A program made the translations under genes and the position numbers. A stretch of DNA of 64,000 bases from Spirochaetia bacterium (GTDB taxonomy: Bacteria > Spirochaetota > Spirochaetia > WTKD01 > G963693115): positions 258,251 through 322,250 of the forward strand of contig CBDDCA010000006.1 of NCBI GenBank assembly GCA_965226055.1. Direction: 5' to 3'. The notes beneath the pieces are model-generated. The model saw only the letters and a list, made by a program, of their open reading frames with translations. It was not told the DNA's origin and did not search any database. Of this stretch, positions 1,791 to 55,864 are shown piece by piece (within the stretch, counting starts at the first letter, position 1; every line of letters begins with the position of its first letter).

Positions 1791-4043
1791 ATGAAGTTAA
1801 ATATATTCTATTTATTTTTTATATTTCTTGTGTTTTCACTTTTTACTTGTGAAGATATAAAGGTTAATAGTAAGGAAAAAGCCACCGCACCAGCAGAGGC
1901 ACGCAGTGTTACAGCAAGCCACACCGATACAAGTATAACTATATCATGGCAAGCCCCTACCCTTACAAGCATACACACAAAAGCAAATGGAGAAAGGCTT
2001 ACAACGACAGATGTATCGTACAAAGTATACAGAGTAGCAAAAGGAAGTGATGCCCGAAGTATAGCCCAGATTAAAACAGCAGACACGAACCCGATAGCAG
2101 TAGCAAAAGGAACAACAAGCACAACTATAAGTAACCTTACTGAAAATACCACCTATGAAATAGTAGTACAATCAGTCAATGCAACAGATAGTACACAAGT
2201 CTCTACAGGCATGCGAATAGAAGTTACTACCCTTGCTACTAATCAAGCAACCGCACCAGCAGAGGCACGCAGTGTTACGGGAAGTCCTACCGATACCAGT
2301 ATAGGCATATCATGGCAAGCACCTGCCCTTACAAGCACACACAAAAAAGCAGATGGAGAAAGGCTCACAACAGCAGATGTATCGTACAAAGTATACAGAG
2401 TAGCAAAAGGAAGCAAAGCCCGCACAATAGCCCAGATTAAAACAGCAGACACAAACCCGATAGCAGTAGCAAAAGGAACAACAAGCACAACTATAAGTAA
2501 CCTTACTATAAATACTACCTATGAAATAGTAGTACAATCAGTCAATGCCACTGACCCAACAAAAATCTCTACAGGTACACTAATAGAAGTAACTACCAAT
2601 AGTCAAGCAACTGCACCAGCAGAGGCACGCAGTGTTACAGCAAACCACACCGATACCAGTACAACTATATCATGGCAACCCCCAATACTTACAAGCACAC
2701 ACAAAAAAGCAGATGGAGAAAGGCTCACAACGGCAGATGTATCGTATAAAGTATACAGAGTAGCAAAAGGAAAGAATGCCCGCACAATAGCCCAGATTAA
2801 AACAGCAGACACAAACCCAATAGCAGTTGCAAAAGGAATAACAAGCACAACTATAAGTAACCTTACTGGAAATACTCCCTATGAAATAGTAGTACAATCA
2901 GTCAATGCCACCGACCCAACAAAAACCTCTACAGGAGTACAAATAGAAATAACTACCAATAGTCAAGCAACTGCACCAGACGAGACACACAGTGTTACAG
3001 CAAGCCACACCGATACCAGTACAACTATATCATGGCAAGCCCCTACCCTTACAAGCAGTCACAAGAAAGCAGATGGAAGATGGCTCACAACAGCAGATGT
3101 ATCGTACAAAGTATACAGAGTAGCAAAAGGAAAGAATGCTCGCACAATAGCCCAAATTAAAACAGCAGACACGAACCCGATAGCAGTAGCAAAAGGAACA
3201 ACAAGCACAACTATAAGTAACCTTACTGGAAATACCACCTATGAAATAGTAGTACAATCAGTCAATGCTACCGACCCAACAAAAACCTCTACAGGAGTAC
3301 AAATAGAAATAACCACCCCAAGCCAAGCTACCATACCAGAAGAAATCCGCTTTTTAGGAAGAAGTCGAACCGATGACAGTATATCCCTATCATGGATATA
3401 TATTTATATTACTCCAGGCAAGAAAGCAACTGGACAAAAGCTTACAGCGGCAGATATATCGTATAAAATATATAGAGTAGCAAAAGGAAAGAATGCCCGC
3501 ACAGTAGCCCAGATTAAAACAGCAGACACAAACCCGATAACAGTAGCAAAAGGAATAACAAGCACAACTATAAGTAACCTTACTATAAATACTACCTATG
3601 AAATAGTAGTACAATCAGTCAATGAAACGGACACTACAAAAGTATCTACAGGAGTACGAATAGAAGCAAATACCGATAGTCAGGCAACCGCACCAGAAGA
3701 TACACAAAGTGTTGGAGTAGATACGACCACCGATGACAGTATAAGAATATCATGGGAAGCCCCTACCCTTACAAGCACACACAAAAAAGCAGATGGAGGA
3801 AGGCTCACAACAGCAGATGTATCATATAAAGTATACAGAGTAGCAAAAGGAAGGTATCCCCGCACAATAGCCCAGATTAAAACAGCAGACACGAACCCGA
3901 TAACAGTAGCAAAAGGAATAACCCACGCAACTATAAGTAACCTTAATGGAAATACTACCTATGAAATAGTAATACAATCAGTGAATGCAACGGACACTAC
4001 AAAAGTATCTACAGGAATACGATTAGAAGTAAATACCAAATAA
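1791..4043 (+). CDS. Surface lipoprotein with six tandem fibronectin type III-like repeats
   Basis: Signal peptide with lipobox (..FSLFTC). A ~120-aa unit repeats six times: 'ATAPAEARSVT..TDTSI.ISWQAP...ADGERLTTADVSYKVYRVAKG...TTYEIVVQSVNATD', which is FN3-like (SW..P, Y.V, TxYEfxVxavN). Confidence 0.8.
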   Translation: MKLNIFYLFFIFLVFSLFTCEDIKVNSKEKATAPAEARSVTASHTDTSITISWQAPTLTSIHTKANGERLTTTDVSYKVYRVAKGSDARSIAQIKTADTNPIAVAKGTTSTTISNLTENTTYEIVVQSVNATDSTQVSTGMRIEVTTLATNQATAPAEARSVTGSPTDTSIGISWQAPALTSTHKKADGERLTTADVSYKVYRVAKGSKARTIAQIKTADTNPIAVAKGTTSTTISNLTINTTYEIVVQSVNATDPTKISTGTLIEVTTNSQATAPAEARSVTANHTDTSTTISWQPPILTSTHKKADGERLTTADVSYKVYRVAKGKNARTIAQIKTADTNPIAVAKGITSTTISNLTGNTPYEIVVQSVNATDPTKTSTGVQIEITTNSQATAPDETHSVTASHTDTSTTISWQAPTLTSSHKKADGRWLTTADVSYKVYRVAKGKNARTIAQIKTADTNPIAVAKGTTSTTISNLTGNTTYEIVVQSVNATDPTKTSTGVQIEITTPSQATIPEEIRFLGRSRTDDSISLSWIYIYITPGKKATGQKLTAADISYKIYRVAKGKNARTVAQIKTADTNPITVAKGITSTTISNLTINTTYEIVVQSVNETDTTKVSTGVRIEANTDSQATAPEDTQSVGVDTTTDDSIRISWEAPTLTSTHKKADGGRLTTADVSYKVYRVAKGRYPRTIAQIKTADTNPITVAKGITHATISNLNGNTTYEIVIQSVNATDTTKVSTGIRLEVNTK
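1881..4040 (+). repeat. Six in-frame tandem repeats with a 360-bp period (366/360/360/360/357/357 bp), more than 90% nucleotide identity among units 1-4
   Basis: Unit starts ('gca(a/c)c(c/t)gcaccagcagaggcacgcagt') at 1881, 2247, 2607, 2967, 3327 and 3684. The reverse strand produces periodic spurious 75-aa ORFs. Confidence 0.9.
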
Positions 4044-8649: not shown

Positions 8650-9642
8650 CTATTTACTTGTGTATTTTATAGAAACCCATATCCGAAACGAACTACTTTT
8701 TCCGTTATATTTACCACTTCCTTGAAAGCTAATTGTATACAATTTCTGTAATAGCTTCCCTTTTGCTTTACCACTTATTGTACCAGAGCTAGTATCAAAA
8801 CCTAATCCTGTCTCATCGTTAATATCAGGAGAAATAGCATAGCGACCAGATATATCACTGGGATTTGCATCAAAACTCACCGATATATCAGTATCTTTGT
8901 CAGCAATAGCCATAATGAACGGTAAGCCATTATACGGTTCTATGGTAACAGCATCATTCCCGCTTGGAGTAAATACATAGCTCCAGCCAGGAAGTTTTAC
9001 ACTCGTAACACCTGAATTATCAAATATACCTTCTACTCTAATAGTATCTTGTATATCCCATTCCTCTAAATCATGCTTAAACCCAGTGGCTCCCTTAAAC
9101 ATATTAATCATATTATTGATAGTATTGTTTACTTTCCACGTTGATATATCTTGATTAAACTGTGTCGCTCCTGCAAACATACTGTTCATATTTTTCACTT
9201 TCTCTACTTTCCACACTGATATGTCTTGATCAAACTGTGTTGCTCCTGCAAACATACCACTCATATCGGTAACATTACTGACATTCCAGCTTGATATATC
9301 TCCATTAAAATGAGTATTTCCCTTAAACATATTGCTCATATCGGTAACATTACTGACATTCCAGCTCGATATATCTCCATTAAAATTAGCTAAATCTCCA
9401 TCACTACTAAATAAACCACTCAAATCTGTCATATTACTTATATCTATATTTGAGAGATCTGTTTCCCATCCATGAAATGAAACTTCACGTTTTATATTAT
9501 TAGCTAGTACTTGTTTATCCGATGGATGATAGACAAAAGACAAGTCTGTAGATTCCTGACTACAACTAAAAAGCAGTAGCAATCCCATTCCTATCATCCA
9601 TAGAAAATAATACTTATATGCTTGAGCATTACATTGTCTCAT
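8650..9642 (-). CDS. DUF285-repeat lipoprotein with a C-terminal He_PIG-like Ig domain. A small paralog of the 2822-aa neighbour
   Basis: Lipobox (LLLFSC). Four repeats of '..F.G...FN.DIS.W.VS.VT.M..MF' (Mycoplasma-type DUF285), then 'SPDINDETGLGFDTSSGTISGKAKG' (the TGxISG signature). Confidence 0.7.
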   Translation of the reverse strand: MRQCNAQAYKYYFLWMIGMGLLLLFSCSQESTDLSFVYHPSDKQVLANNIKREVSFHGWETDLSNIDISNMTDLSGLFSSDGDLANFNGDISSWNVSNVTDMSNMFKGNTHFNGDISSWNVSNVTDMSGMFAGATQFDQDISVWKVEKVKNMNSMFAGATQFNQDISTWKVNNTINNMINMFKGATGFKHDLEEWDIQDTIRVEGIFDNSGVTSVKLPGWSYVFTPSGNDAVTIEPYNGLPFIMAIADKDTDISVSFDANPSDISGRYAISPDINDETGLGFDTSSGTISGKAKGKLLQKLYTISFQGSGKYNGKSSSFRIWVSIKYTSK

Positions 9643-9785
9643 AACTATTACACCAAATATACATTGATTACTACAGCTTGTACTTTAACTATAATTATTT
9701 TTACTAAATCTTACAGAGTAAAAAAACAATATGCTATTATTATACACTATATTAAAAAAATATGCAAAAATAGGTAATAAGTTGC

Positions 9786-9826
9786 CACGAGTTCAAGTAT
9801 TAAATGTGACAAAGGAGCAAAAAAAG
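9786..9826 (+). repeat. Solo IS30-family left-end (IRL) remnant, a degenerate copy
   Basis: 'cacgagttcaagtattaaatgtgacaaaggagcaaaaaaag' matches the left end of the intact IS at 54784 (cacgagttcaaggattaaatgcgacaaaggagcaaaaaaag) with three mismatches. Confidence 0.5.
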
Positions 9827-9930: not shown

Positions 9931-10536
9931 TTATATTCTACTGAATAAGATACTGAACAAAATACCAAATCCTGACAACATGATAGTCATTTGAATTCCA
10001 AAAAACCAGTACATAATAGTACTGTTTGTTTTTATCGATTCTTTCATAGATTTTATTTCTGTTGTCAAATTTTCCCGTACACTATTTATTTCTGTTGTCA
10101 AATTTTCCCGTACACTGCTTATCTCTGTTGTTAAGTTCTCCCGTATGCTGTTTATTTCTGTTGTTAAGTTCTCCCGTACACTGTTTATTTCTGTTGTTAA
10201 TTTCTTCTCTACACTGTTTATTTCTGTTGTCAAATTTTCCCGTACACTGCTTATCTCTGTTGTCAAATTCTCTCGTACGCTGTTTATTTCTGTTGTCAAA
10301 TTTTCCCGTACACTATTTATTTCTATTGTCAAATTTTCCCGTACACTGCTTATCTCTGCTGTTAAGTTCTCCCGTACACTGCTTATCTCTGCTGTTAAGT
10401 TCTCCCGTACGCTGTTTATTTCTGTTGTTAATTTCTTCTCTACACTGTTTATTTTTTCTAATAAAAAATCATATTGTGTAATTGGAGTTGCAAGCATTCC
10501 ATCTTCATTTGTAATTTTCTCTTGTACTGCTCTCAT
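9931..10536 (-). CDS. Bdr-like tail-anchored coiled-coil protein built on 11-aa (33-bp) tandem repeats
   Basis: Central '(T)EI(N/S)SVRENLT' repeated about 12 times and a C-terminal hydrophobic anchor (IMYWFFGIQMTIMLSGFGILFSILF). The architecture resembles Borrelia Bdr/DUF1640-type proteins. Confidence 0.6.
   Translation of the reverse strand: MRAVQEKITNEDGMLATPITQYDFLLEKINSVEKKLTTEINSVRENLTAEISSVRENLTAEISSVRENLTIEINSVRENLTTEINSVRENLTTEISSVRENLTTEINSVEKKLTTEINSVRENLTTEINSIRENLTTEISSVRENLTTEINSVRENLTTEIKSMKESIKTNSTIMYWFFGIQMTIMLSGFGILFSILFSRI
10050..10460 (-). repeat. About 12.5 contiguous 33-bp tandem repeats, coding and in frame
   Basis: Consensus unit 'ttatttctgttgtcaaattttcccgtacactg(c/t)' with alternating variants (gtcaaatt / gttaagttctc). 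Confidence 0.9.
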
Positions 10537-10604
10537 AATTTTATTATATCATATTATTATCATTGAGTAAGTATGTAATCATTTGTAAGGTTGCAAATAA
10601 ACAA

Positions 10605-13600
10605 CTAGCGACAATTCCCCGCTGGAAGACACCATCCAGGCAAGTTTTTTACAGCTGTACCCTTAAACATATCTGTTTTTATCACACTGTTTGCTACATT
10701 CCAGTTACTCAAATTCTGATTAAAAACACTAGCATCAGCAAACATACTGCTCATATCGGTAACATTACTTACATTCCAATTCCCTATATCTTGATTAAAA
10801 ACATCAGCATCATAAAACATATACCTCATATTGGCAACATTACTTACATTCCAATTCCCTATATCCTGATTAAAAGCTTCAGCATCATAAAACATACTGT
10901 TCATATTGGTAACTTTACCTACATTCCATTTTGATATATCTCCATTGAAAAATTCTGTTTGATTAAACATATTGCTCATATCGGTAACTTTACTTACATT
11001 CCATAACGATACATCTCCATTAAAGTATTGTTTATCATAAAATAGCCCTCCCATGTCTGTTATGTTACTTGTATCTATCATGTTTAAGTTAGGGGCAAAT
11101 CCTTGTGCTTTTATCTCTGCTTCTATGGCTTCCTCTAACTTTTTTTTGTTTTGAGGAGTGTACTTGTATTCTATCGTAACTGATATTGTTTTTGATCTAC
11201 TGGCATCAGTATATGTATGTATTGCTTTCCCATCGCTCTTTTTACTGGTAAACTCTATAGTATAGGTCTTTGAAGCTGCTTTGGTAGGAGTACCTGATAT
11301 CTTCCCAGTATCAGCATCAAAGCTCAACCCTGTATCTGCTGTTATATCCGGACTTATACTAAAAATTCCTGCTATAGCGGGTGTTTTAGTAAGTGTTACT
11401 TCTTTATCTTTCGTTAATGGTACTCCTACATATGCCTTTACACTACCTCCTATACTAGCTCTACTTGCACTTATATTAAAATACCATGTAGGGAGTATTA
11501 CTACAGCTGTATGCTCAAACATATTTGTTTTACTCACAGTTTTATCCACATTCCATGTTTCAAGTTCTTTATTAAATACACTTGCTCCCTTAAACATATT
11601 GCTCATATCGGTAACTTTACTGACATTCCACCCTGTTATATCTTGATTAAACTTACTTGCATTAATAAACATACTACGCATATCGGTAACTTTACTGACA
11701 TTCCACCCTGTTATATCTTGATTAAACTCACTTGCCTTAAAAAACATACTGCTCATATTGGTAACGCTACTGACATTCCATCTTGATATATTTCCATTAA
11801 AATTAACTTCACTGGAAAATAGACTACTCATATCTTTTATTTTACTTGTATCTATCATAGTGAGATCGGGGGTATTTCCTTGTACAGTTATCTCTGTATT
11901 TATAGCCTGCTGTAATTCTGCTTTATTATTAGGAATATGCTTATACTCTTTAATAGTAACTAACACTTTTATAGTCCGCCTATCATCAATATATTTATGT
12001 ATGAGTGTTTTATCAGCCTCTTCACTTCTAAACTGTATGGTATACTCAGTCTGTGAAGTTACTGTGGTGGGAGTACCTGATATTATGCCAGTACTAGTAT
12101 CAAAGTTCAACCCTGTATTTGTTGTTATATTTGGACTTATACTAAAACTCCCTGTTATAACGGGCGTTTTGGTAAGTATTATTTTTTGACTGTCTAGGAG
12201 TGATAAATCTCTATAGACACTTATAGTAGTACTATTTGCACTTATACTAAAATACCATGTAGGCAACTTTTTTACTGCTGAAGCAAGAAACATATCTGTT
12301 TTTGTCACACCGCTATCTACATTCCAACTTTCAAGATCTTGGTTAAATGCATTTGCGTTATTAAACATAAAAAACATATTCGTAACACTACTGACATTCC
12401 AATTTGATATATCCCCATTAAATTTTTGTGCTCCTGCAAATATACTGCTCATATTGGTAACTTTACTTACATCCCATTTCGATACATTTCCATTAAAATG
12501 ATCTTTACTGGAAAATATATTACTCATATCTGTTATAGCACTCGTATCTATTATGTTTAGATTAGCGGTATTTCCTTGTGCATTTATCTCATCATCTACA
12601 GCCTTCTGTAATTCTGTTTTATCACTGGGCGTATACTTATACTGACTTATAGTTACATGTATCTCTATTGTCCGATCAGTATATGTATGTATTGTTTTCC
12701 CATTCTTTTCACTGGTAAACTGTATAGTATACTTAGTTTGTGAAGCTAATATAGTGGGAGTACCCGATATTGAGCCAGTGTTAGTATCAAAGTTCAACCC
12801 TGTATTTGTTGTTATATTTGGACTTATACTAAAACTCCCTGTTACATTAGACGTTTTAGTGAGTGTTATTGTTTCAGTGTTACTTAGCGATAAATCTTTG
12901 TATCCAGTTATAGTAGTTCTGTTTGCATTTATACTAAAATACCATGTAGGCAACTTCTTTACTACTGTACTTTCAAACATATTTGTTTTTATTACACTGC
13001 TTTTTACATTCCAGTTTTCCAGATTTGCACTAAACTTTGATGCAAAATTGAACATAGTTTCCATATTTGTAACTTTACTTACAGTCCAATTTTTTATATC
13101 TTGGTTAAAGCTTTGTGCAGATAGAAACATAGCTCTCATATTTATAACTTTACTTACAGTCCAATTTTTTATATCTTGGTTAAAGGCATGTGCTCCAGCA
13201 AATAAACTCTCCATATTTGTAACAGCACTTACATTCCATCCTGATATATCTCCATTAAATTTATTCGCATTCAAAAACATATTGCTCATATTTGTAACTT
13301 TACTTACATTCCATTTTGATATATCTCCATTGAAATTAGCTTTATCCTCAAATAGATTACTCATATCTGTTATAACACTTGTGTCTATTATGTTGAGATT
13401 AGCAGTATCTCCTTGTGCAGCTATCTCATCATCTACAGCTTTCTGTAACTCTGTTTTATTACTAGGAGTATGCTTATAACTTGTGGTAACTGATATTTTT
13501 ATTGTTCTATCAGTATATTTATGTGTCGCTGGATTACCTTTACTATCAGTAAAGCTACTGGTAAACTCTATAGTATAATCAGTCTTTGAAGCTGCTTTAG

Positions 13601-16600
13601 TAGGAGTTCCTGATATTGTGCCAGTGCTAGTATTAAAATCTAACCCTGTATTTACTGTTATATCTGGACTTATACTAAAACTTCCTGTTATATCAGGCGT
13701 TTTGGTAAAAGTTATTTCTTTATTTTTTGCAAGTGGAACATTTACATATGTATTTATACTACGATTACTTGCACTTATATTAAAATACCATGTAGGCAAC
13801 TTTGCTACTGCGGTATTCTTAAACATATCTGTTTTTGTCACACCACTTGCTACATTCCAGCTTTCAAGATCTTTTTCAAATGCATTTGCTCCACTGAGCA
13901 TACTACTCATATTGGTGACAGCATTTACATCCCATTCGGATATATCTCCATTGAAAGTAATATTATCCTTAAATAGATCACTCATATCTGTTATTTTACT
14001 TGTATCTATTATGTTGAGATTAGCTTCGTTTCCTTGTACATTTATCTCTGTAGTTATAGCTTGCTTTAATTCTGTTTTATTATTAGGAGTATGCTTATAC
14101 CTACGTATCTCTACCGATATTTTTATTGTCCTATCAGTATCAATATATTTATGTATTACTGTTCCATCTGTCTTTTTACTTGTAAACTGTATGGTATATT
14201 CAGTCTTTGAGATTGCTGTAAGAGGAGTACCCGATATTTTACCAGTGCTAGGATCAAAATCTAAACCTGTATTTTTTGCTATATCTGGACTAACGCTAAA
14301 ACTTCCTGTTATATTAGGTGTTTTGGTAAGGGTTATTTCTTTATCTGTTGCTAATGGTATGTTTTTATATGCAATTATCTTATTATCACTTGCACTTATG
14401 CTAAAATACCATGTAGGCAACTTTGCTACTGCGGTATTCTTAAATATATCTGTTTTTGTCACAGTCCCATCGCTTGCTACATTCCAATCTTCCAGATCTT
14501 GGTTAAATTTTGTCGCTCCCAAGAACATCTTGCCTATATCGGTAACGCTACTTATATTCCAGCTTGATATATCTTGATTAAACGCTGCCGCTGACGAAAA
14601 CATCTGATGCATATTCGTAACTTTTCCTACCTTCCAATTTGATATATCTTTATTAAAAATGGTTGCTCCCGAAAACATAGCTGTCATATTTGTAACTTTT
14701 CTTACATCCCAGCCCGACATATTGCTATTAAAATTTGCTGCTCCTAAAAACATTCGATTCATATCCGTAACTGCCCCTACATTCCACCCCGATATATCTT
14801 TATTGAAACTGGTTGCTCCCGAAAACATATTCCCCATATCATTCACATTTTGTACCTTCCAATTTGATATATCTTGATTAAAACTTGTCGCATTCCAAAA
14901 CATACCATTCATGTTAGTAACACTTTGTACCTTCCAGTTTGATATATCTTGATTAAAACTACCTGCATAATAAAACATACTGCTCATATCAATAACATTA
15001 CTTACATTCCAACCAGAAATATCCCCATTAAATGCAGCAGCTTGATTAAACATATGACTCATATCAGTAACATTACTTACATCCCACTCAGATATTTTAC
15101 CATTAAAAGTAGTATTACTATTAAATAATCCACTCATATCATCAATCTTACTAGTATCAATTATATTTAAGTCAGCAGTATTTCCTTGTAATCCTATCTC
15201 AGTATTTATATTGTTTATTAATTCTAATTTACCAGTAGGAGTATACTTATGCCCTATAGTAACTGTTATCGTTATTGTCCTATCAGTATAGGCATATATT
15301 GTTTTCCCATTCTTTTCACTGGTAAACTGTATGGTGTAAGGAGTTTTTGAAGCTACCTTTGTAGGAGTACCCGATATTGTCCCAGAGCTAGAATCAAAAC
15401 TCAAGCCTGTATTTGTTGTGATACTTGGACTTATACTAAAACTTCCTGCTATACTAGGTGTTTTGGTAACTTTTATTTCTTCACTTGCTCCTAATTTTAT
15501 ACGTGCTTGCCCTGTCAGAGCAGACTTATTTGCACTTATACTAAAATACCATGTAGGTAACTTTGCTACTGCGGTATTCTTAAACATATCTGTTTTTGTC
15601 ACAGTCCCATCGCTTGCCACCTTCCAGCTTTCAAGATCTTTGTCAAATGCACTTGCTCCTAAAAACATGCTACTCATATCAGCAACCTTGCTTACATTCC
15701 ATCCCGATACATTTTGATTGAAACTTGTTGCTCCTGAAAACATATTACTCATATCGGTAACGCTACTTACATCCCATCCCGATATATCTCCATTGAAATT
15801 AGCTTTATTCTCAAATATATTACTCATATCTGTTATATTACTTGTATTTATTATGTTTAAGTTAGCAGTATTTCCTTGTACTTCTATCTCCTTTTTTATG
15901 TTTTCCAATAACTCTGTTTTGTTGTTAGGAGTATAAAGATAAGTATTTATTGCTACTGATAGAGTGATGGATCTAGTATCGACATAAGTATATGTCGCTG
16001 GATTACCTGAGCTATCAGTAAAGCTACTGGTAAACTGTATGGTGTAAGAAGTTTGTGAAGCTGCCTCGGTAGGAGTACCCGATATTGTGCCAGTTCTAGT
16101 ATCAAAATCTAACCCTGTATTTGCTTTGATATCTGGACTTATACTGAAACTTCCTGCTATAAGGGGTGTCCTTGTCAGTATTATATCTGTTATTGGTACT
16201 TTTACTCCCTCATGTATACTATTGCTGCTTGCGCTTATACTAAAATACCATGTAGGTAATTTTGCTACTGCAGTATTCGTAAACATATTTGTTTTTGTCT
16301 TAAGGCTTGCTATATTCCAGTTTTCAATATCTCCATTAAATTTTATCGCCCCACTCAACATATTTTCCATATCAGTGACTTTACTTACATTCCACTCGGA
16401 TATATTTCCATTGAAAGTAGTGTTATCCTTAAATAGATCACTCATATCTGTTATGTTACTTGTATCTATTATGTTGAGATTAGCAGTATTTCCTTGTGCA
16501 TTTATCTCTGTAGTTATAGCTTGCTTTAATTCTGCTATATTATTGGGAGTATGCTTATATTTATGTATCTCTACTGATATTGTTATTGTTCTATCAGTAT

Positions 16601-19073
16601 AGGTATGTGTTGCTAAAGCACCTGTACTACCAGTAAAGCTACTGGTAAACTGTATGGTGTAAGAAGTTTGTGAAACTGCTTTGGTAGGAGTGCCTGATAT
16701 TGTCCCAGTGCTAGTATTAAAACTCAACCCTGTATTTGCTGTTATATCTGGACTAATACTAAAATTTCCTGCTATATCAGGCGTTTTGCTAAGGGTTATT
16801 TCTTCATTTTTTGCTAGCGGTATTCCTCTATATACATCTATACTAGCACTATTTGACTTTATGCTAAAATACCATGTAGGTAATTTTGCTACTGCGGTAT
16901 TCTTAAATATATCTGTTTTTGTCACAGCGATTGCTACATTCCAGCCTTCAAGATCTTGTGTAAACTTAGAAGCACCAGAAAACATGCTACTCATATTGGT
17001 AACCTTGCTTACATTCCATCCCGACACATTTTGATTGAAACTTGTTGCTCCTAAAAACATACTGCTCATATCGGCAACTTTACTTACATTCCATCCCGAT
17101 ACATTTTGATTGAAACTTGTTGCTCCTAAAAACATACTGCTCATATCGGTAACTTTACTTACATTCCATTTCGATATGTCTCCATTAAAACTTGTTGCTC
17201 CTGAAAACATACTGCTCATATCGGTAACTTTACTTACATTCCATTTCGATATATCTCCATTGAAAGTAGTGTTATCCTTAAATAGCCTACTCATATCTGT
17301 TATAAGACTCGTATTTATTATGTTTAGATTAGCAGTATTTCCTTGCAATCCTACCTCTGTTTTTATAGCTTCCAATAATTCTGCTTTATTTTTTGGCTTA
17401 TACTCTATAGTGAGCAATATTTCTATTGTCCTATCAGTATCAGTATAGGTATGTATTTCTGTCCTATCAGAGGAGGTACTTGTAAATGTTATAATATACT
17501 CAGTCTCTGAGGCTACCTTTGTAGGAGTACCTGATATTGTGCCAGTACTAGTATCAAAACTCAACCCTATACTCGTTATATCTGGCTTTATACCAAATTT
17601 TCCTGTTATATCAGGCGTTTTGCTAAGAGTTATTTTTTCATTATCTGCTAGTGATACCCCTTTATATACAGTGAGCTCATCAACATTAGCACTTATGCTA
17701 AAATACCATGTAGGCAATTTTGCTACTGCGGTATTTGTAAACATATCTTTTTTTGTCACAGTGCTTGCTACATTCCAGCCTTCAAGATCTTTATCAAATG
17801 CACTTGCTCCTGAAAACATACCATCCATATCTGTAATATTACTTACCTTCCACTTTGATATGTCTCCATTGAAACTTGTTGCTCCTGCAAACATATTACT
17901 CATATCGGTAACATTGCTTACATCCCACAATGATATATCTCTATTAAAGGTAGTGTCATCCTTAAATAGATCATGCATATCTTTTACAGCACTTGTATTT
18001 ATATAGTTAAAATTATCTACATCAGTATTTTTAATTGCTTCTATTAATTCGTTACGTGTTTTTACTATAGCAGTAAACACCGATACATATATAGAGAACT
18101 GGCTAGACTTTCCTAAGTAACTTCCATCCCCTGTAAAACGAATTGTATATTTTCTTCGTATACCATTTTCTTTATCCTTCAATAACCTTATTGCAGTGCC
18201 ATATATTTCTCCATTATTGTCCTTCATCTCCAATCCTGTATCTTCCGTAAGAGTTGTCGTTTTTCCATCAGTACTATTAAATTCAATACTCCATGTACCA
18301 GTAATTCCTGGAGGGCTTGTTGCAATATTGATTGGCATTAAAGGAACATTCAAGCTCGACTTGATTAACTGTTCATTATCATACCTATCTGTGATAGAGT
18401 TTCCATCACGCACAAGAGTAAATACATAATGCCAACTAGGAATACTTGTTGCAGGTACATTAGCTCCCTTAAATATATCTTGTATATTTACTGAATCTGC
18501 TACCTGCCATTTCTCTAAATCATACTGAAACACTGTTGCTTTATTAAACATGTTACTCATATCGGTAACCTTGCTCACATTCCAGCCTGATATATCTTGA
18601 TTAAAACTTGCTGCGGCTTCAAACATGTTACTCATATCGGTAACCTTGCTCACATTCCAGCCTGATATATTTTGATTAAAACTCGTTGCTCCCTTAAACA
18701 GATTACTCATATTAGTAACATTACTTACATTCCAGCCTGATATATTTCCATTAAAGGTAGTATTTCCTTCAAACATACTGCTCATATCAGTAATATTGCT
18801 TACATCCCAACTTGATATATCACCTGAAAAATTGGAAAATTCACCATCACCTTTGAATAAGCCGCTTATATCTTTTACTTTACTTGTATCTATAGTAGAG
18901 AGATCTGCTGCATTTCCGCGGGAGGCAATTTCTCGCTTAATGTTTTCAATAAGCGATTCTCTACTATCAGGAGAGTAAATAAAGTCTAAACTTAAAGATT
19001 TTTCTGGATCACAACCAGATACCAAAAAAGCGAAACATAAAAATAGCCAAAATATAAAAAATTGATACTTCAT
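10605..19073 (-). CDS. Giant 2822-aa modular surface lipoprotein: about 10 modules, each a DUF285 repeat block plus a He_PIG-type Ig-like domain
   Basis: Lipobox (FLVSGC). Each module reads '..NTANLNIIDTS.ITDMS.LF', then 3-8 repeats of 'F.GATSFNQDIS.WNVS.VTDMS.MF', then 'AVAKLPTWYFSISA...ITLTKTP.I(A/T)GSFSISPDIT.NTGLSFDTSTGTISGTPT...YTIQFTS'. Confidence 0.85.
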   Translation of the reverse strand: MKYQFFIFWLFLCFAFLVSGCDPEKSLSLDFIYSPDSRESLIENIKREIASRGNAADLSTIDTSKVKDISGLFKGDGEFSNFSGDISSWDVSNITDMSSMFEGNTTFNGNISGWNVSNVTNMSNLFKGATSFNQNISGWNVSKVTDMSNMFEAAASFNQDISGWNVSKVTDMSNMFNKATVFQYDLEKWQVADSVNIQDIFKGANVPATSIPSWHYVFTLVRDGNSITDRYDNEQLIKSSLNVPLMPINIATSPPGITGTWSIEFNSTDGKTTTLTEDTGLEMKDNNGEIYGTAIRLLKDKENGIRRKYTIRFTGDGSYLGKSSQFSIYVSVFTAIVKTRNELIEAIKNTDVDNFNYINTSAVKDMHDLFKDDTTFNRDISLWDVSNVTDMSNMFAGATSFNGDISKWKVSNITDMDGMFSGASAFDKDLEGWNVASTVTKKDMFTNTAVAKLPTWYFSISANVDELTVYKGVSLADNEKITLSKTPDITGKFGIKPDITSIGLSFDTSTGTISGTPTKVASETEYIITFTSTSSDRTEIHTYTDTDRTIEILLTIEYKPKNKAELLEAIKTEVGLQGNTANLNIINTSLITDMSRLFKDNTTFNGDISKWNVSKVTDMSSMFSGATSFNGDISKWNVSKVTDMSSMFLGATSFNQNVSGWNVSKVADMSSMFLGATSFNQNVSGWNVSKVTNMSSMFSGASKFTQDLEGWNVAIAVTKTDIFKNTAVAKLPTWYFSIKSNSASIDVYRGIPLAKNEEITLSKTPDIAGNFSISPDITANTGLSFNTSTGTISGTPTKAVSQTSYTIQFTSSFTGSTGALATHTYTDRTITISVEIHKYKHTPNNIAELKQAITTEINAQGNTANLNIIDTSNITDMSDLFKDNTTFNGNISEWNVSKVTDMENMLSGAIKFNGDIENWNIASLKTKTNMFTNTAVAKLPTWYFSISASSNSIHEGVKVPITDIILTRTPLIAGSFSISPDIKANTGLDFDTRTGTISGTPTEAASQTSYTIQFTSSFTDSSGNPATYTYVDTRSITLSVAINTYLYTPNNKTELLENIKKEIEVQGNTANLNIINTSNITDMSNIFENKANFNGDISGWDVSSVTDMSNMFSGATSFNQNVSGWNVSKVADMSSMFLGASAFDKDLESWKVASDGTVTKTDMFKNTAVAKLPTWYFSISANKSALTGQARIKLGASEEIKVTKTPSIAGSFSISPSITTNTGLSFDSSSGTISGTPTKVASKTPYTIQFTSEKNGKTIYAYTDRTITITVTIGHKYTPTGKLELINNINTEIGLQGNTADLNIIDTSKIDDMSGLFNSNTTFNGKISEWDVSNVTDMSHMFNQAAAFNGDISGWNVSNVIDMSSMFYYAGSFNQDISNWKVQSVTNMNGMFWNATSFNQDISNWKVQNVNDMGNMFSGATSFNKDISGWNVGAVTDMNRMFLGAANFNSNMSGWDVRKVTNMTAMFSGATIFNKDISNWKVGKVTNMHQMFSSAAAFNQDISSWNISSVTDIGKMFLGATKFNQDLEDWNVASDGTVTKTDIFKNTAVAKLPTWYFSISASDNKIIAYKNIPLATDKEITLTKTPNITGSFSVSPDIAKNTGLDFDPSTGKISGTPLTAISKTEYTIQFTSKKTDGTVIHKYIDTDRTIKISVEIRRYKHTPNNKTELKQAITTEINVQGNEANLNIIDTSKITDMSDLFKDNITFNGDISEWDVNAVTNMSSMLSGANAFEKDLESWNVASGVTKTDMFKNTAVAKLPTWYFNISASNRSINTYVNVPLAKNKEITFTKTPDITGSFSISPDITVNTGLDFNTSTGTISGTPTKAASKTDYTIEFTSSFTDSKGNPATHKYTDRTIKISVTTSYKHTPSNKTELQKAVDDEIAAQGDTANLNIIDTSVITDMSNLFEDKANFNGDISKWNVSKVTNMSNMFLNANKFNGDISGWNVSAVTNMESLFAGAHAFNQDIKNWTVSKVINMRAMFLSAQSFNQDIKNWTVSKVTNMETMFNFASKFSANLENWNVKSSVIKTNMFESTVVKKLPTWYFSINANRTTITGYKDLSLSNTETITLTKTSNVTGSFSISPNITTNTGLNFDTNTGSISGTPTILASQTKYTIQFTSEKNGKTIHTYTDRTIEIHVTISQYKYTPSDKTELQKAVDDEINAQGNTANLNIIDTSAITDMSNIFSSKDHFNGNVSKWDVSKVTNMSSIFAGAQKFNGDISNWNVSSVTNMFFMFNNANAFNQDLESWNVDSGVTKTDMFLASAVKKLPTWYFSISANSTTISVYRDLSLLDSQKIILTKTPVITGSFSISPNITTNTGLNFDTSTGIISGTPTTVTSQTEYTIQFRSEEADKTLIHKYIDDRRTIKVLVTIKEYKHIPNNKAELQQAINTEITVQGNTPDLTMIDTSKIKDMSSLFSSEVNFNGNISRWNVSSVTNMSSMFFKASEFNQDITGWNVSKVTDMRSMFINASKFNQDITGWNVSKVTDMSNMFKGASVFNKELETWNVDKTVSKTNMFEHTAVVILPTWYFNISASRASIGGSVKAYVGVPLTKDKEVTLTKTPAIAGIFSISPDITADTGLSFDADTGKISGTPTKAASKTYTIEFTSKKSDGKAIHTYTDASRSKTISVTIEYKYTPQNKKKLEEAIEAEIKAQGFAPNLNMIDTSNITDMGGLFYDKQYFNGDVSLWNVSKVTDMSNMFNQTEFFNGDISKWNVGKVTNMNSMFYDAEAFNQDIGNWNVSNVANMRYMFYDADVFNQDIGNWNVSNVTDMSSMFADASVFNQNLSNWNVANSVIKTDMFKGTAVKNLPGWCLPAGNCR

Positions 19074-19219: not shown

Positions 19220-19675
19220 TTATTTCTTACGTTTTGCTCGCGTACTCTTGGGTGTATTCTTCTGTTGTGTATCATTCTCATCATTCACCATGATAGTATT
19301 AAAATTGATAGGAGGCAGTAGTATTGGGGAAATGCCAGATTTTGCTGTTAATGAAGAAATATATTCTCTTACATAAGGAAAAAGAACAGCAGGAGCATCT
19401 TTTTTTGAAAATTCTTTCAATAATGCTATATTTGGTTCTTCTGCATCTTCTTGAAACTGTCCTGCACAAATAATTTCAATATGTAACGAGTTTTCTTCAT
19501 TTTGAATTGTAACCTTTAGTTCTACATATAGCATATTATTATCTTCATCTATTGAAGATTTTGCTTCCATCTGCGGATCAATTTCAGATGATTGTATAGT
19601 AGCAGCTCTCTGGAATACTACATGAGGAAATATAATAGAATGTATTCTAATACCAAGTGATTTATTTTTTTGCAT
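19220..19675 (-). CDS. secB: Protein-export chaperone SecB
   Basis: '..APAVLFPYVREYISSLTAKSGISPILLPPINFNTIM' matches the conserved SecB core (FPYaRe.is.l...gfPpl.LaPvNFdal). It has an acidic and basic C-terminal tail. Confidence 0.7.
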   Translation of the reverse strand: MQKNKSLGIRIHSIIFPHVVFQRAATIQSSEIDPQMEAKSSIDEDNNMLYVELKVTIQNEENSLHIEIICAGQFQEDAEEPNIALLKEFSKKDAPAVLFPYVREYISSLTAKSGISPILLPPINFNTIMVNDENDTQQKNTPKSTRAKRKK

Positions 19676-26866: not shown

Positions 26867-26906
26867 CACGAGTTCAAGGATTAAATGCGACAAAGGAGCA
26901 AGAAAC
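26867..26906 (+). repeat. Solo IS30-family left-end (IRL) copy. It heads a ~410-bp cassette duplicated at 54278-54700
   Basis: 'cacgagttcaaggattaaatgcgacaaaggagcaagaaa' is followed by sequence that is more than 95% identical to 54325-54700. Confidence 0.55.
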
Positions 26907-44046: not shown

Positions 44047-44085
44047 TCACGAGTTCAAGGAGTAACTGCGACAAAGGAGCAAAAA
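44047..44085 (+). repeat. Solo IS30-family left-end (IRL) remnant at the junction of the tandem HtrL duplication
   Basis: 'cacgagttcaaggagtaactgcgacaaaggagcaaaaaa' matches the IS30 left end at 54784 with four mismatches. Confidence 0.5.
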
Positions 44086-49835: not shown

Positions 49836-50699
49836 TTAATGAGAGATACTATTAACTTTTAAACTATCTTTGAAAAATAATATTTCTTTTCCATTCTTAG
49901 TTTTATTAGCAAAATGTTTTAGAATAAAAGGTTTTCTATTTTTTACCCAAGAAAAATTTTCATTTATTTCCTCTTTATCATCATAAGAAACAATCCAAGA
50001 AAATTTTTTAATATTTTTAATTTTTTCACTTAAGATTTTATGCTGATCTTGTTTATAAAAGTTTAAGTATAAATCTTTTCCTTTATTAAAATAGGGAGGA
50101 TCAAAATAAAATATTGTCTGCTTATTTTTTTCTTCTTTTTGAATTTTATCAATTAGTTCTAAAACATCTAGATTATGCAGAGTTATTTGTTCTTTATACC
50201 TTGCTATTAATTTGATTTTTTTTATTATTGTATCTTTATTGAATCTACAATTTAATTTATATTTTCCTTTTTGTTTTAAGCCTCCAATAGGACCTCCTTT
50301 TAAAATTCCTGAAAAATTTGCCCTATTTAAAAATAATGTAGAAAAGCCTACCTCTAATGATGAAAAATTTTGTATCTCTTTTTGTATTTCTTTTTGTTTT
50401 TTCCAATTTTCTATACTTATTTCTGTATCATGTATGAGTGTGCATAACTCATCAGTTTTATTCAAAACACAATACCAAAAAGAATAAATAGATTTGTCTA
50501 AATCATTTAAAGTTATTTTTTTAAATTTATTTTCTAATAAAAGATATAAACCAACTGAAGCTCCTCCACAAAAAGGCTCTACATAATGATCATTTATTTT
50601 ATTATCAGTGCAAATTTGAGAAATAAATTTTGAAAGCCTATTCTTTCCTCCTGGATATCTTAATGGTGAATAAAATTTATTTTTAATCATTTTTACCAT
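49836..50699 (-). CDS. Dam-family (D12, alpha-class) N6-adenine DNA methyltransferase
   Basis: 'YPGGKNRL' , then motif I 'EPFCGGASV', then 'NDLDKSIY', then motif IV 'FYFDPPYF'. The gene is very AT-rich compared with its neighbours. Confidence 0.8.
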   Translation of the reverse strand: MVKMIKNKFYSPLRYPGGKNRLSKFISQICTDNKINDHYVEPFCGGASVGLYLLLENKFKKITLNDLDKSIYSFWYCVLNKTDELCTLIHDTEISIENWKKQKEIQKEIQNFSSLEVGFSTLFLNRANFSGILKGGPIGGLKQKGKYKLNCRFNKDTIIKKIKLIARYKEQITLHNLDVLELIDKIQKEEKNKQTIFYFDPPYFNKGKDLYLNFYKQDQHKILSEKIKNIKKFSWIVSYDDKEEINENFSWVKNRKPFILKHFANKTKNGKEILFFKDSLKVNSISH

Positions 50700-51969
50700 A
50701 GTAATGCTTTAATATTTTCCCTACAATTTTAGAACACTGTAAAATATTTGTTTTATCATATTCAATATTTGCGTGAGCATATTTTGCTAATAACGATTCA
50801 AAATCAGAATTTTTTTTCAAAATGTCTGTGCCAATACTATTGAAATTTAATTCTTTTTGATCTAACATATCAGATGCTTTAATTTCTTTCATAAATTCTC
50901 CAAAAACAGCATCATCACTTGCTCGTTTATCTCCCTCATTTTCAAAATATTTTCTTCCAGCAGCCTCCATTATTAGTCTCAAAGACATACCTATAATAGG
51001 TAAGATATTTTTATCTCTTTTAAATGTTTCATAAATTTCATCTAGTATACTATACAAATCATTAACTTTTCCTTTTTTTAGTTCTAATTTTTCTCCAAAT
51101 AAAGTATCTACGATTGCTTTATCTCTAGGAGTTTTTCTTAGTTTTTTTTGTAAATTATTATCTTTTATCACATTCTTGCTACTCTGTTCTGTAAAATTTC
51201 TAATATTTAATTCTTTATCATCAATTAAAGGTTTTATTGATCCTCTATTTTTTCTTGTACTTATTTGTTTACTTTGAATCAATTGTATTAATTTTTCAAA
51301 AATTAATTGTAATTTTTCATCCTTTTCATATGAAGGATAAACACTCTCTAATTTATTATTTGAATCAAAATAAAAACCTAATTTGTAAAAATTATCTACA
51401 GTCAAAATTTCTGTTTTAATAAAATTTTGATCTAGTGCTTTATAATTCTCACTTATTAAATGTGTTGCTTCTTCAATTTTTAAAAATAAACTTTTTTCCT
51501 TTTTCAAATGATAATGATCAAAATAATCTTGTTGTAAAGCAGACCAAGTATTATTTCTTATATTATCTGCTTGTATAATTGTTAATGCTGTTTTCTCATT
51601 ACATAAAACACAAGAAATTTCTTTTAAGTTTACTAAATTTTTTGGTGGACTAGATGGAAATAATTTTTTTTCTATTACAACAGACCATTGTGGATTTTGT
51701 AAATATTTTAATACTACTATTCTTTTATTACCATCATAAACAATATGTTTTTTATTTTTAAAAACAACAATTGGTAATTTATTAAGATGATAGAAATCTC
51801 CCATTTCTTCAATTAGCTTTGGAATATTCCATTTATCTCTATCATCCTTTATGGCTTTTTTTATTATTTCTAAATCTCCAATATCTTCTCCAATTGGATC
51901 TCTTGGATTTTCAGTCCATAAATGTAATTCCGATATTTTTATCTCTTTGATTTTTTGATCATCACCCAT
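50683..51969 (-). CDS. ParB/Srx-like (DUF262-like) nuclease-domain protein, 428 aa. Its gene overlaps the start of the Dam-family MTase gene
   Basis: N-terminal 'ISELHLWTENPRDP ... LPIVVFKNKKHIVYDGNKRIVVLKYL' fits the ParB N-terminal/DUF262 pattern (NPR...DG.xR). I recognise no domain in the C-terminal half. Confidence 0.6.
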   Translation of the reverse strand: MGDDQKIKEIKISELHLWTENPRDPIGEDIGDLEIIKKAIKDDRDKWNIPKLIEEMGDFYHLNKLPIVVFKNKKHIVYDGNKRIVVLKYLQNPQWSVVIEKKLFPSSPPKNLVNLKEISCVLCNEKTALTIIQADNIRNNTWSALQQDYFDHYHLKKEKSLFLKIEEATHLISENYKALDQNFIKTEILTVDNFYKLGFYFDSNNKLESVYPSYEKDEKLQLIFEKLIQLIQSKQISTRKNRGSIKPLIDDKELNIRNFTEQSSKNVIKDNNLQKKLRKTPRDKAIVDTLFGEKLELKKGKVNDLYSILDEIYETFKRDKNILPIIGMSLRLIMEAAGRKYFENEGDKRASDDAVFGEFMKEIKASDMLDQKELNFNSIGTDILKKNSDFESLLAKYAHANIEYDKTNILQCSKIVGKILKHYYGKND

Positions 51970-52016
51970 ATATTTAATTCCTCCACCTCTCTTGCTTAAT
52001 CTACTTAATAAGTATA

Positions 52017-54195: not shown

Positions 54196-54283
54196 ACTTA
54201 CTCCTATTGATTAAAATATATTACATGGTATTTTACATTATATTAAAACAATGGTATTGTTGCAGTAACTTATTATTGGGGAT

Positions 54284-54324
54284 CACGAGTTCAAGGATTA
54301 AATGCGACAAAGGAGCAAAAAAAG
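54284..54324 (+). repeat. Solo IS30-family left-end copy heading the second duplicated cassette
   Basis: The 58 bp from 54281 are identical to 54781-54838, the left end of the intact IS. Confidence 0.6.
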
Positions 54325-54473
54325 TAAGAAAAATAAAACAAAGCATATTTTTATTAGCTACTACATATAGTGTATATTTAGTATATAATTTTCAATTTAA
54401 GCACTAGAGAAATTTGCTTTATTTTTATATTAATGTTATACTAAATGCAGAATAATAAGAGAACAATAACATT

Positions 54474-54731: not shown

Positions 54732-54785
54732 TGATAATTATATCACCGATCAACAGTTAAAGGAATTTAATTATGTCACCGATCA

Positions 54786-55864
54786 CGAGTTCAAGGATTA
54801 AATGCGACAAAGGAGCAAAAAAAGTAAGAAAAAATAAAAAAAGGAGACACTCTATAATTGTATAAACGAAACAAATTAGGAGGTCTCCTTTATGAGTATA
54901 CCAAAAAACTCATTTCGTCATCTGACAGAGAAAGATCGTACTATTATCGCTACGCTCCGTCATGCAAAGTACAGTGTCAATGCTATAGCCAAACGCCTCA
55001 GTGTCCATCGCAGCACTGTCTATCGTGAAATACAACGCAATGGGGGCAAACGTGTCTATAATGAAGTCATTGCTCACAGACGGGCAAGAAAACGATGGGA
55101 ACAGAGTCATACAAAACACTCTGTTCTTTCTCATACTATTCGTACCTATATCGTTTTTCACCTTATTTTCGATGGCTGGTCGCCCGAACAAATAGCAGGA
55201 AGGCTCAGTATTGATATGCCTCAGTATGCTATCAGTCATGAGACGATATATCACTTTATTTACCGTTTCGCTCCTCATTTGACACAGTATCTGCGAAAAC
55301 AGCACCAAACACGCAAAAAAAGAACCATATCTCACTCTTTTTCTGTTTCTCGTATCCCTCATCGTGTCTCAGTACACGAACGAGGCGATGTTTCTAATGA
55401 ATATGGCCACTGGGAAGTAGATCTTGTTGGCTCTTCTTCAAAAGCTACTGTGCTTGCTTTAGTGGAAAAACATACCCGTTATGTTCTTTTTCATAAGATA
55501 CCTGACAAAACTGCTCATACCGTACAGTATGGCATGCTCTTTGCTCTAAGGAACATACCACGCCATTTATGTAACAGTTTCACTTATGATAATGGGAGTG
55601 AATTTATGCTCCATACTGAAATAAATACACGCTTGAATGCTCGTTCTTATTTTTGTACTCCTTACTGTGCTTGGGAAAAAGGATTAGTCGAACATTCTAT
55701 TGGATTATTACGTCAGTACTTTCCTAAGAAGACTTTGTTTCATAGAGTCAAGCAAAGTGATATACTACAAGTACAAACGCTTATCAATCATAGACCACGA
55801 AAATGTCTTCATTTTTTGACCCCTGCTGAAGCCTTTTCTGTCGCATTTAGTCCTTGAATCCGCA
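54786..55864 (+). mobile_element. Intact IS30-family insertion sequence (~1.08 kb) with terminal inverted repeats of ~23-25 bp
   Basis: IRL 'cgagttcaaggattaaatgcgaca' (54787-54810). The reverse complement of the right end (55839-55863) reads 'gcggattcaaggactaaatgcgaca'. A single transposase ORF is present and its stop lies inside the IRR. Confidence 0.8.
54892..55857 (+). CDS. IS30-family DDE transposase
   Basis: An N-terminal HTH ('..NAIAKRLSVHRSTVYREIQRNGG', cf. IS30 '..RSTISRELKRN') and a C-terminal DDE region (HWEVDLV ... YDNGSEF ... CLHF). An RBS 'aggagg' lies 8 nt upstream. Confidence 0.85.
   Translation: MSIPKNSFRHLTEKDRTIIATLRHAKYSVNAIAKRLSVHRSTVYREIQRNGGKRVYNEVIAHRRARKRWEQSHTKHSVLSHTIRTYIVFHLIFDGWSPEQIAGRLSIDMPQYAISHETIYHFIYRFAPHLTQYLRKQHQTRKKRTISHSFSVSRIPHRVSVHERGDVSNEYGHWEVDLVGSSSKATVLALVEKHTRYVLFHKIPDKTAHTVQYGMLFALRNIPRHLCNSFTYDNGSEFMLHTEINTRLNARSYFCTPYCAWEKGLVEHSIGLLRQYFPKKTLFHRVKQSDILQVQTLINHRPRKCLHFLTPAEAFSVAFSP

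Follow-up and report, generated by a model that had tools for sequence, protein, structure and literature searches.

A chromosomal hendecad-repeat, tail-anchored protein of a Spirochaetia bacterium shares its layout with Borrelia Bdr and probably belongs with DUF1640-type stalk proteins

The DNA analysed here, called the window throughout, is a stretch of 64,000 nucleotides from a Spirochaetia bacterium (contig CBDDCA010000006.1, positions 258,251 to 322,250 of the forward strand), and the subject of this report is a minus-strand gene in it that encodes a 201-aa protein composed of a short N-terminal cap, a tandem array of 11-residue (hendecad) units and a C-terminal transmembrane anchor (Table 1). 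A first-pass annotation made from the sequence had described the protein as Bdr-like, after the Bdr paralogous family of Borrelia. The open reading frame (ORF) is a real and conserved gene, since its ends are near-identical in a syntenic ortholog of a second genome, L001, which has the same start. The N-terminal cap holds the motif P-x-T-x-Y-D-h-L-L-E-K, and hydropathy analysis found no hydrophobic segment at the N-terminus of the window protein. At the other end, the C-terminal hydrophobic anchor read by the first-pass annotation was confirmed, with a 19-residue Kyte-Doolittle mean of up to 1.8. Three lysines sit immediately ahead of this anchor and only three residues, S-R-I, lie beyond it. 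AlphaFold2, run on the single sequence, predicted one unbroken helix over aa 18-199 with a mean predicted local distance difference test score of 91.9.

Tandem Repeats Finder (TRF) detected 12.2 tandem copies of a 33-bp unit at 10052-10454 (86% matches), with a score of 515, which is far above chance. The conserved core of the unit is I2, V5 and L9, and their 3-4-4 spacing is the hendecad pattern. Individual units match the consensus at 28-32 of 33 nt and adjacent units differ at 2-8 nt, while the degenerate thirteenth unit retains only 5 of 11 amino acids and 19 of 33 nucleotides of the consensus. Identical units are limited to two pairs, neither of them adjacent, and exact direct repeats within the gene reach at most 47 bp. 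Units seven apart (i and i+7) differ at just 0-5 nt, which indicates that a 231-bp block of seven units was duplicated. The first-pass annotation had counted at least 12 perfect 33-bp repeats. The count agrees with the twelve clear units and one degenerate unit found here, whereas the perfection does not hold at 86% matches. Its reading-frame-keeping consensus, TEI(N/S)SVRENLT, proved to be our unit in another register. The S/T-x-x-E motifs that it listed are also present: [ST]-x-x-[DE] occurs 13 times, in ten cases as the SVRE or SIRE of the units, and its presence follows directly from the repeated unit. For Bdr, phosphorylation of Ser/Thr residues in the repeats has been proposed.

Table 1 Position of the repeat gene, its parts and the surrounding features in the window
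Feature	Position	Strand	Remarks
Repeat gene, complete (201-aa hendecad-repeat protein with tail anchor)	9931..10536	-	ATG at 10536, stop at 9931-9933 (ORF list)
N-terminal cap, aa 1-27 (MRAVQEKITNEDGMLATPITQYDFLLE)	10456..10536	-	helix begins at about aa 18
Twelve 33-bp/11-aa hendecad units, aa 28-159	10060..10455	-	consensus EINSVRENLTT; TRF and unit table
Degenerate 13th unit EIKSMKESIKT, aa 160-170	10027..10059	-	lysine-rich, membrane-proximal
C-terminal transmembrane anchor, aa ~174-198 (IMYWFFGIQMTIMLSGFGILFSILF)	9943..10017	-	hydropathy; helical in the AlphaFold2 model
Candidate extended -10 element TGATATAAT	10543..10551	-	ends 6 nt ahead of the ATG
Solo IS30 left end (left inverted repeat and adjacent bases)	9785..9826	+	in the 288-bp spacer downstream of the repeat gene
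330-aa PARCEL/DUF285 protein	8650-9642	-	DUF285/PARCEL repeat match; lipoprotein-like N-terminus
2822-aa protein	10605-19073	-	PARCEL/DUF285 motif by eye; lipoprotein-like N-terminus
SecB-family chaperone homolog	19220-19675	-	PF02556, 47.5 bits; directly upstream of the 2822-aa gene
IS30-family element, intact	54784-55864		transposase 54892-55857 (NF033563, 236 bits; HTH_38 and rve)

A scan with one genome per species returned a single relative, the syntenic gene on the 2.36-Mb chromosome of a 'Spirochaetia bacterium' metagenome-assembled genome (MAG), which is L001. The ortholog has 226 aa, compared with 201 aa in the window; only 1 of 27 N-terminal and 3 of 43 C-terminal residues differ between the two. 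Its array consists of 11 hendecads, two 18-residue segments and one degenerate unit, and its higher-order repeat is 120 bp, against 231 bp in the window. The degenerate last unit is thus kept in L001, and a copy of it has been duplicated within the L001 array: the 18-residue segments arose by duplication of a 120-bp block that included this copy. Nucleotide identity to L001 is 94.6% in the flanking DNA of the ABC transporter, 97.8% in another flank, 95-98% in housekeeping flanks and about 87% in the PARCEL/DUF285 genes. Comparison of the two sequences indicates that the array has been rebuilt independently, and always in frame, in two lineages separated by about 5% divergence.

The first-pass annotation had expected the repeat number to be hypervariable by slippage. 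Repeat content does differ between the window and L001, but hypervariability of the slippage type was not shown, and the inference is weakened by units that are diverged and imperfect, with no exact repeat beyond 47 bp. The alignments suggest instead that array length varies between lineages, the divergence of the units arguing against rapid slippage. The literature on Borrelia bdr genes gives the same picture of lineage differences without rapid change, in that the repeat number was unchanged during culture while strains differ (PMC3303823). These data also bear on whether the gene encodes a variable antigen of the contingency type, that is, an exported and exposed helix whose length is altered by rapid slippage for escape from host or phage. 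Such an antigen would fit an array that differs between two closely related genomes, and neighbours that are large, fast-evolving surface lipoproteins with about 87% nucleotide identity where housekeeping sequence has 95-98%. However, the protein has neither a signal peptide nor a lipobox and its sole hydrophobic stretch sits at the very C-terminal end, adjacent repeats have diverged by 2-8 nt, unlike those of slippage contingency loci, and the length changes are all in frame, so no on/off switching would result. We therefore consider a contingency antigen highly improbable.

The lineage of the window was placed by its glucose-6-phosphate isomerase, which is 98% identical to that of the L001 MAG, with next matches at 86%, 75%, 73% and 69% and about 60% identity to the enzymes of named Spirochaetaceae, Alkalispirochaetaceae, Salinispira and Spirochaeta lutea. 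No protein named Borrelia or Borreliella was present among the best 120 matches. The window therefore comes from a sparsely sampled Spirochaetia lineage and not from Borreliaceae. The 69%-identical enzyme (P0169) comes from a 24-kb contig recorded as belonging to the scallop Ylistrum balloti, a hint that relatives of the window lineage are associates of marine invertebrates or contaminants in assemblies of these animals.

The plus strand over the array also carries two antisense ORFs, 10062-10481 and 10145-10570 (139-141 aa); both are open for the sole reason that the 33-bp unit contains no stop codon in either of their frames. Synonymous and non-synonymous differences among the units number 132:128 in the sense frame and 155:94 in one antisense frame; because the antisense frame is the more synonymous-rich, a synonymous test cannot choose the coding strand here. 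The minus-strand frame was accepted on other grounds: its ends have homologs, it encodes an anchor, its start is conserved, and the L001 version differs in length without a change of frame. Upstream of the ATG, TGATATAAT reads as a perfect extended -10 element and is unchanged in the L001 ortholog; between it and the ATG no Shine-Dalgarno sequence can be seen. This arrangement tentatively suggests that the repeat gene has its own promoter and that its mRNA may be leaderless, given the missing Shine-Dalgarno sequence and the distance of 6 nt to the ATG; a consensus promoter scan found no -35/-10 pair at 10543..10551. Scans of the window for Rfam families and tRNAs returned nothing, and exact-sequence look-ups of the window protein and two neighbours gave no match.

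Besides the L001 ortholog, the only protein that shares both non-repeat ends with the window protein is P0045 (119 aa). Its N-terminus, P-A-T-H-Y-D-I-L-L-E-K-M-N-S, aligns with P-I-T-Q-Y-D-F-L-L-E-K-I-N-S of the window protein at a z-score (z) of 10 against shuffled sequences, and its tail, I-K-T-I-Y-W-I-L-G-I-H-F-A-I-T-L-T-G-F-S-L-I-F-S-Q-L-F, reaches z 12 to the window tail. These three proteins are best explained, from their sequences, as a small subfamily that would lack the head found in related proteins described below, and the cap motif is its hallmark. A word-indexed homolog search, run with one sequence and with a three-sequence profile, yielded just 4-5 weak hits, so the subfamily is barely sampled. 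A metagenome scan gave one irrelevant hit at 15% identity, and a scan of viral contigs found zero relatives.

The resemblance to Bdr (paralogous family PFam80) is evident in the layout. Bdr proteins, which are described as unique to Borrelia and of unknown function (PMC4370689, PMC3303823), are like the window protein small (about 180-230 aa) and spirochaetal, with central 11-residue repeats of the core x-I-x-x-V-x-x-N-L-x-x that share some residues with the window units, a C-terminal hydrophobic anchor that starts with W-x-x-G-I, and a repeat copy number that differs, between strains and paralogs in Bdr and between the window and L001 here. The similarity extends to database searches. In a plasmid collection searched by tblastn, 239 records matched, 229 of them from Borrelia or Borreliella; among the matches listed, query coverage was 87-96%, E went down to 6e-19 and identity was 31-40%, and nearly all fell on genes annotated 'Bdr family repetitive protein'. 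In a search of the pooled hits with Bdr queries, no non-Bdr protein matched better than those of the window and L001. Moreover, an hhalign comparison of the subfamily alignment with four Bdr proteins gave 98.8% probability and E 1.3e-16, extended into the anchor and aligned the W. Taken together, these results could be explained by the window protein being a genuine member of the Bdr family, an ortholog or direct descendant with Bdr function on the chromosome of another spirochaete.

In contrast, other features of Bdr are missing. The Bdr N-terminal domain of about 60 aa is absent from the window protein. The NCBIfam model for it (NF040499, Bdr_N_group1, cut-off 40 bits) scored 94.3 bits on a real Bdr of JD1 cp32 and was not among the best 25 of 33 NCBIfam matches of the window protein (to E 0.07), and local alignment of the two N-termini was not above shuffles (z 0.4, 627/2000). 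The other NCBIfam candidates, ZorA, SpiroCoCo, EzrA, FliH and others, were far below their cut-offs and were set aside as coiled-coil noise. The units also differ, being EIN/EIS in the window protein and KID/KIE in Bdr: the Pfam KID repeat (PF02524, cut-off 20.8) scored 12.9 bits (E 0.13) on four window units and 81-91 bits on three Bdr proteins, was not among the 25 best Pfam families for the whole window protein, and the window protein contains no KID or KIE, the tripeptide characteristic of the Bdr family (PMC4370689). A window unit is identical to Bdr units at 4-5 of 11 positions, compared with 5-7 of 11 for many non-Borrelia proteins, and with the window protein as query Bdr ranked at only about 61-82 in the pool. 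That pool was chosen by the window protein itself, so the reciprocal test with Bdr queries is biased. The window anchor is only weakly similar to the cp32 Bdr tail (z 3.2, with 25/2000 shuffles reaching the score), and no similarity was found to a second type of Bdr tail (P0150, z 0.1). Bdr genes are multi-copy on plasmids and cp32 prophages, whereas the repeat gene is a single chromosomal locus in the 64-kb window, outside Borreliaceae and with no cp32-type neighbours (blyA/blyB, mlp). Membership in the Bdr family proper is thus quite unlikely. Of the three-part Bdr design claimed by the first-pass annotation, the short N-terminal part, the 11-aa core with the same hendecad pattern (x-I-x-x-V-x-x-x-L-x-x) and the anchor stand, while the N-domain and the KID repeat are unmatched. 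As a description of layout the name Bdr is fair; as a family assignment it is unsupported.

A wider relationship emerged from searches beyond Borrelia. When 1.84 billion representatives were searched exhaustively with phmmer, 1591 hits had an E of 1e-3 or lower, and among the best 150 of these, 24 of the 48 hits of no more than 300 aa have a C-terminal transmembrane segment. Many of the tail-anchored hits show a full design: after a head and an L-A-T-K-x-D neck come 5-12 hendecads (x-E-I-x-x-V-R-x-D-L-x) and a tail with R/K-W-M-x-G. The Hamiltonella phage APSE-1 protein P47, annotated as DUF1640 domain-containing, matches the window protein at E 6e-16 and has a head, a VATKAD neck, AEIADVRKDLS units and an RWMLG tail. 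Further hhalign analysis against nine DUF1640-type hendecad tail-anchored proteins gave 99.6% and E 1.5e-23 over window aa 61-184, and the window Y-W (W177) aligned to the W of both the DUF1640-type and the Bdr tails. With PF07798, formerly DUF1640 (cut-off 33.5), the window protein scored 38.7 bits and its L001 counterpart 34.5, values driven by the repeats as set out below. The first-pass annotation had named Bdr and DUF1640 profiles as a check on its reading, and had held that a fixed array length together with no relation to either would tell against it; array length differs between the two genomes and profile similarity was found to both families, although part of that similarity is shared by the control described below. 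Judged from these sequence comparisons, DUF1640-type hendecad proteins match the window protein at least as well as Bdr does.

The DUF1640/CCDC90-like proteins comprise bacterial and phage members and the mitochondrial MCUR1, CCDC90B and Put6/Put7, and like the window protein they have a coiled-coil stalk and then one C-terminal transmembrane helix, with a conserved W at its beginning. Units of the same kind as those of the window, x-E-I-x-x-V-R-x-D-L-x, make up the stalk of many bacterial and phage members. The difference lies at the N-terminus. The alpha-helical head (F-D-T-L ... A-G ... Q-A-E-A) is missing from the window protein, in which only 17-27 residues precede the stalk; correspondingly, the PF07798 match starts at profile position 49 and leaves the head uncovered, compared with position 1-2 in P0153, P0057 and P0062. 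The canonical neck is missing as well, with a loose L-A-T-P / P-I-T-Q-Y-D-F in its place. KID-type hendecads, moreover, occur outside Borrelia-sized replicons, in P0153, P0154, P0127, P0089 and P0131, some of which have the DUF1640 head and neck, and one member of the P0153 cluster is on a 7.19-Mb contig. The best explanation of this pattern is a hendecad W-x-x-G tail-anchored class that includes the DUF1640/CCDC90-like proteins, APSE-1 P47, Bdr and the window protein.

Several results weigh against this placement. In hhalign, a soluble repeat-only protein (P0125) used as a control reached 97.7% and E 1.7e-12 against the 98.8% of Bdr, so most of the Bdr score is repeat against repeat. PF07798 gave no match at E 0.01 for a 3-repeat version of the window protein or for the 119-aa homolog P0045, and Baculo_PEP_C, plainly an unrelated family, likewise scores above its cut-off on the L001 ortholog (44.5 vs 38), which together indicate that the PF07798 pass is driven by the repeats. 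On sequence grounds, the homology to DUF1640 and Bdr depends nearly entirely on the repeat. A hidden Markov model of head and neck, made from 11 members, scored 3.0 bits on the window N-terminus, a value reached by 17/200 shuffles. The published beta-layer neck of DUF1640-type proteins, where the stalk begins, reads [aliphatic]-A-T-K-[polar]-[DE] (PMC4786415), and neither L-A-T-P-I-T nor P-I-T-Q-Y-D-F of the window protein fits it; a reading of P-I-T-Q-Y-D-F as a beta-layer neck was set aside as conjecture, with the head/neck model not above shuffles. Similarity of the window tail to DUF1640-type tails is weak (z 2-5). The genomic context, in which the repeat gene lies between two PARCEL/DUF285 lipoprotein genes with an ABC sugar transporter nearby, yields no functional clue, and L001 was the one close relative available for comparison.

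These points raise the question of convergence, namely that the likeness to Bdr and DUF1640 reflects only an amphipathic 11-residue repeat combined with a membrane helix in an unrelated, lineage-specific invention. The best Pfam match of the window protein is indeed Apolipoprotein (PF01442), at 70.3 bits and below the cut-off of 90, and a sequence search of the PDB returned mainly apolipoproteins, which were also its strongest matches, in low-confidence alignments at E 1e-7 or weaker, with no CCDC90B. The exchangeable apolipoproteins (A-I, A-IV, E) have tandem 11/22-residue amphipathic helical repeats as the window protein does, but they are eukaryotic, secreted and lipid-binding and have no membrane anchor, the likeness being one of periodicity and composition only. 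Convergence would also be consistent with matches to dozens of unrelated coiled-coil families, with the long coiled-coil proteins at the top of the 1.84-billion library search, with the score of the repeat-only control and with non-repeat ends shared by two relatives only. On the other hand, the likeness of the window unit to those of many bacterial proteins extends past the hydrophobic pattern to specific residues (E-I-x-S-V-R-x-x-L, up to 7/11), a tail anchor is present in about half of the short hits, the W at membrane entry aligns across the groups, and the similarity of the tail to several members is above shuffles (z 3-5). Convergence is therefore rather unlikely.

The tail likewise invites comparison with phage lysis proteins. 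XhlA (PF10779, cut-off 34.7), a protein of the Bacillus PBSX lysis cassette with a short coiled coil and a C-terminal membrane helix like those of the window protein, is the best tail-only Pfam match both for the window protein (12.5 bits, E 0.17) and for Bdr (23.4), and phrog_9415, a phage protein family of unknown function, covers stalk and anchor in the window protein (78.9 bits) and in cp32 Bdr (47.7 bits). With bdr of Borrelia cp32 sitting a few genes downstream of the holin genes blyA/blyB, and with a similar gene in phage APSE-1, the window gene might be read as a lysis or envelope accessory of the XhlA/holin-associated type left by a prophage. The XhlA score is nevertheless far below its cut-off, XhlA has no repeat array, and no lysis or other phage genes surround the locus, where the neighbours are PARCEL/DUF285 lipoproteins, the ABC sugar transporter and SecB. 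The scan of viral contigs gave no relative, and synteny is kept in the second genome. A prophage remnant is accordingly very unlikely.

Overall, the window protein is probably a cytoplasm-facing, tail-anchored hendecad coiled-coil rod, a head-less relative of the hendecad W-x-x-G tail-anchored class. Hendecads have 11/3 = 3.67 residues per turn, and 18 residues in 5 turns is also an allowed periodicity (PMC4786415). This geometry would give a nearly straight, slightly right-handed coiled coil. In the proposed arrangement, the N-terminal cap (aa 1-27) would start the helix, and several chains would join through the I/V/L seam of the hendecads into a nearly straight rod. Of the mitochondrial relatives, CCDC90B and MCUR1 are reportedly trimeric, a statement attributed to Adlakha et al. 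2019. From the roughly 156 helical residues before the anchor, the model predicts a rod of about 20-23 nm, and that of L001 would be about 3.7 nm longer. The rod would stand on the cytoplasmic face of the inner membrane, the membrane that also holds the C-terminal anchor of Bdr; this orientation is suggested by the missing signal peptide, the three residues after the anchor and the lysines before it, and by analogy with the mitochondrial DUF1640 proteins Put6/Put7, which face the matrix (PMC7519068). There it may act as a spacer or scaffold, with a partner bound at its N-terminal tip.

The array would evolve by duplication and deletion of units and blocks through recombination between diverged repeats. 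Each step of 11 or 18 residues would amount to whole helical turns, so that length would shift while seam and anchor stay in register. It is conceivable, though decidedly unlikely when both ideas are taken jointly, that the array is an evolvable molecular ruler, whose whole-turn steps (11 or 18 residues, ~1.6-2.7 nm) set the distance between the inner membrane and a cytoplasmic or envelope structure, and that the subfamily could be the chromosomal stock of the prophage-borne Bdr of Borrelia and of the hendecad DUF1640 proteins of phages.

Around the repeat gene, the gene for the 2822-aa protein has a 75-bp tandem periodicity with many internal modules. The first-pass annotation had also noticed a remnant of an IS30 left inverted repeat (IRL) downstream of the repeat gene, at 9786-9826. 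Indeed, 9785-9825 matches 54783-54823, the left end of the intact IS30 element of the window, with 3 mismatches in 41; the 20-nt inverted-repeat core has 2. The 20-nt inverted repeats of the intact element, IRL at 54790-54809 and the right one (IRR) at 55839-55858, are 95% complementary. The solo left end at 9785..9826 is also present at the orthologous site of L001, where it is more diverged. Four solo left ends lie in one orientation in the window (9785-9826, 26867-26892, 44048-44073 and 54281-54343), each 58-144 bp upstream of the start of a minus-strand gene; the copy at 54281-54343 is a 63-nt direct repeat placed exactly 500 bp upstream of the real left end.

Two further regions of the window differ in composition. 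The fibronectin type III repeat genes at 1791-4043 (+) and 56191-60906 (+) have a G+C content of 0.41-0.44 and an AT skew of about +0.4; the latter also carries DUF285, and the L001 counterpart of the former is a long array of tandem modules of about 360 bp. At 50001-52000 the G+C content is 0.234, compared with about 0.33-0.36 elsewhere, and the ORFs there are 49836-50699 and 50683-51969, the second with no NCBIfam match. This low-G+C stretch may be foreign DNA.

On the best reading, the window protein is a variant without a head within the widespread class of hendecad-repeat proteins with a tail anchor, to which the DUF1640-type proteins and Bdr belong as well. It is otherwise an ordinary hypothetical membrane protein, and nothing points to a new mechanism. 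For the family, this locus and the many similar proteins recovered indicate that the Bdr layout is one local version of a design that is very widespread in bacteria and phages, a hendecad stalk on a tail anchor starting with W. KID-type units are present as well in proteins from contigs too large for Borrelia. Being head-less, the window protein may serve as a simple model of how stalk and anchor act alone, and of whether repeat number tunes physical length.

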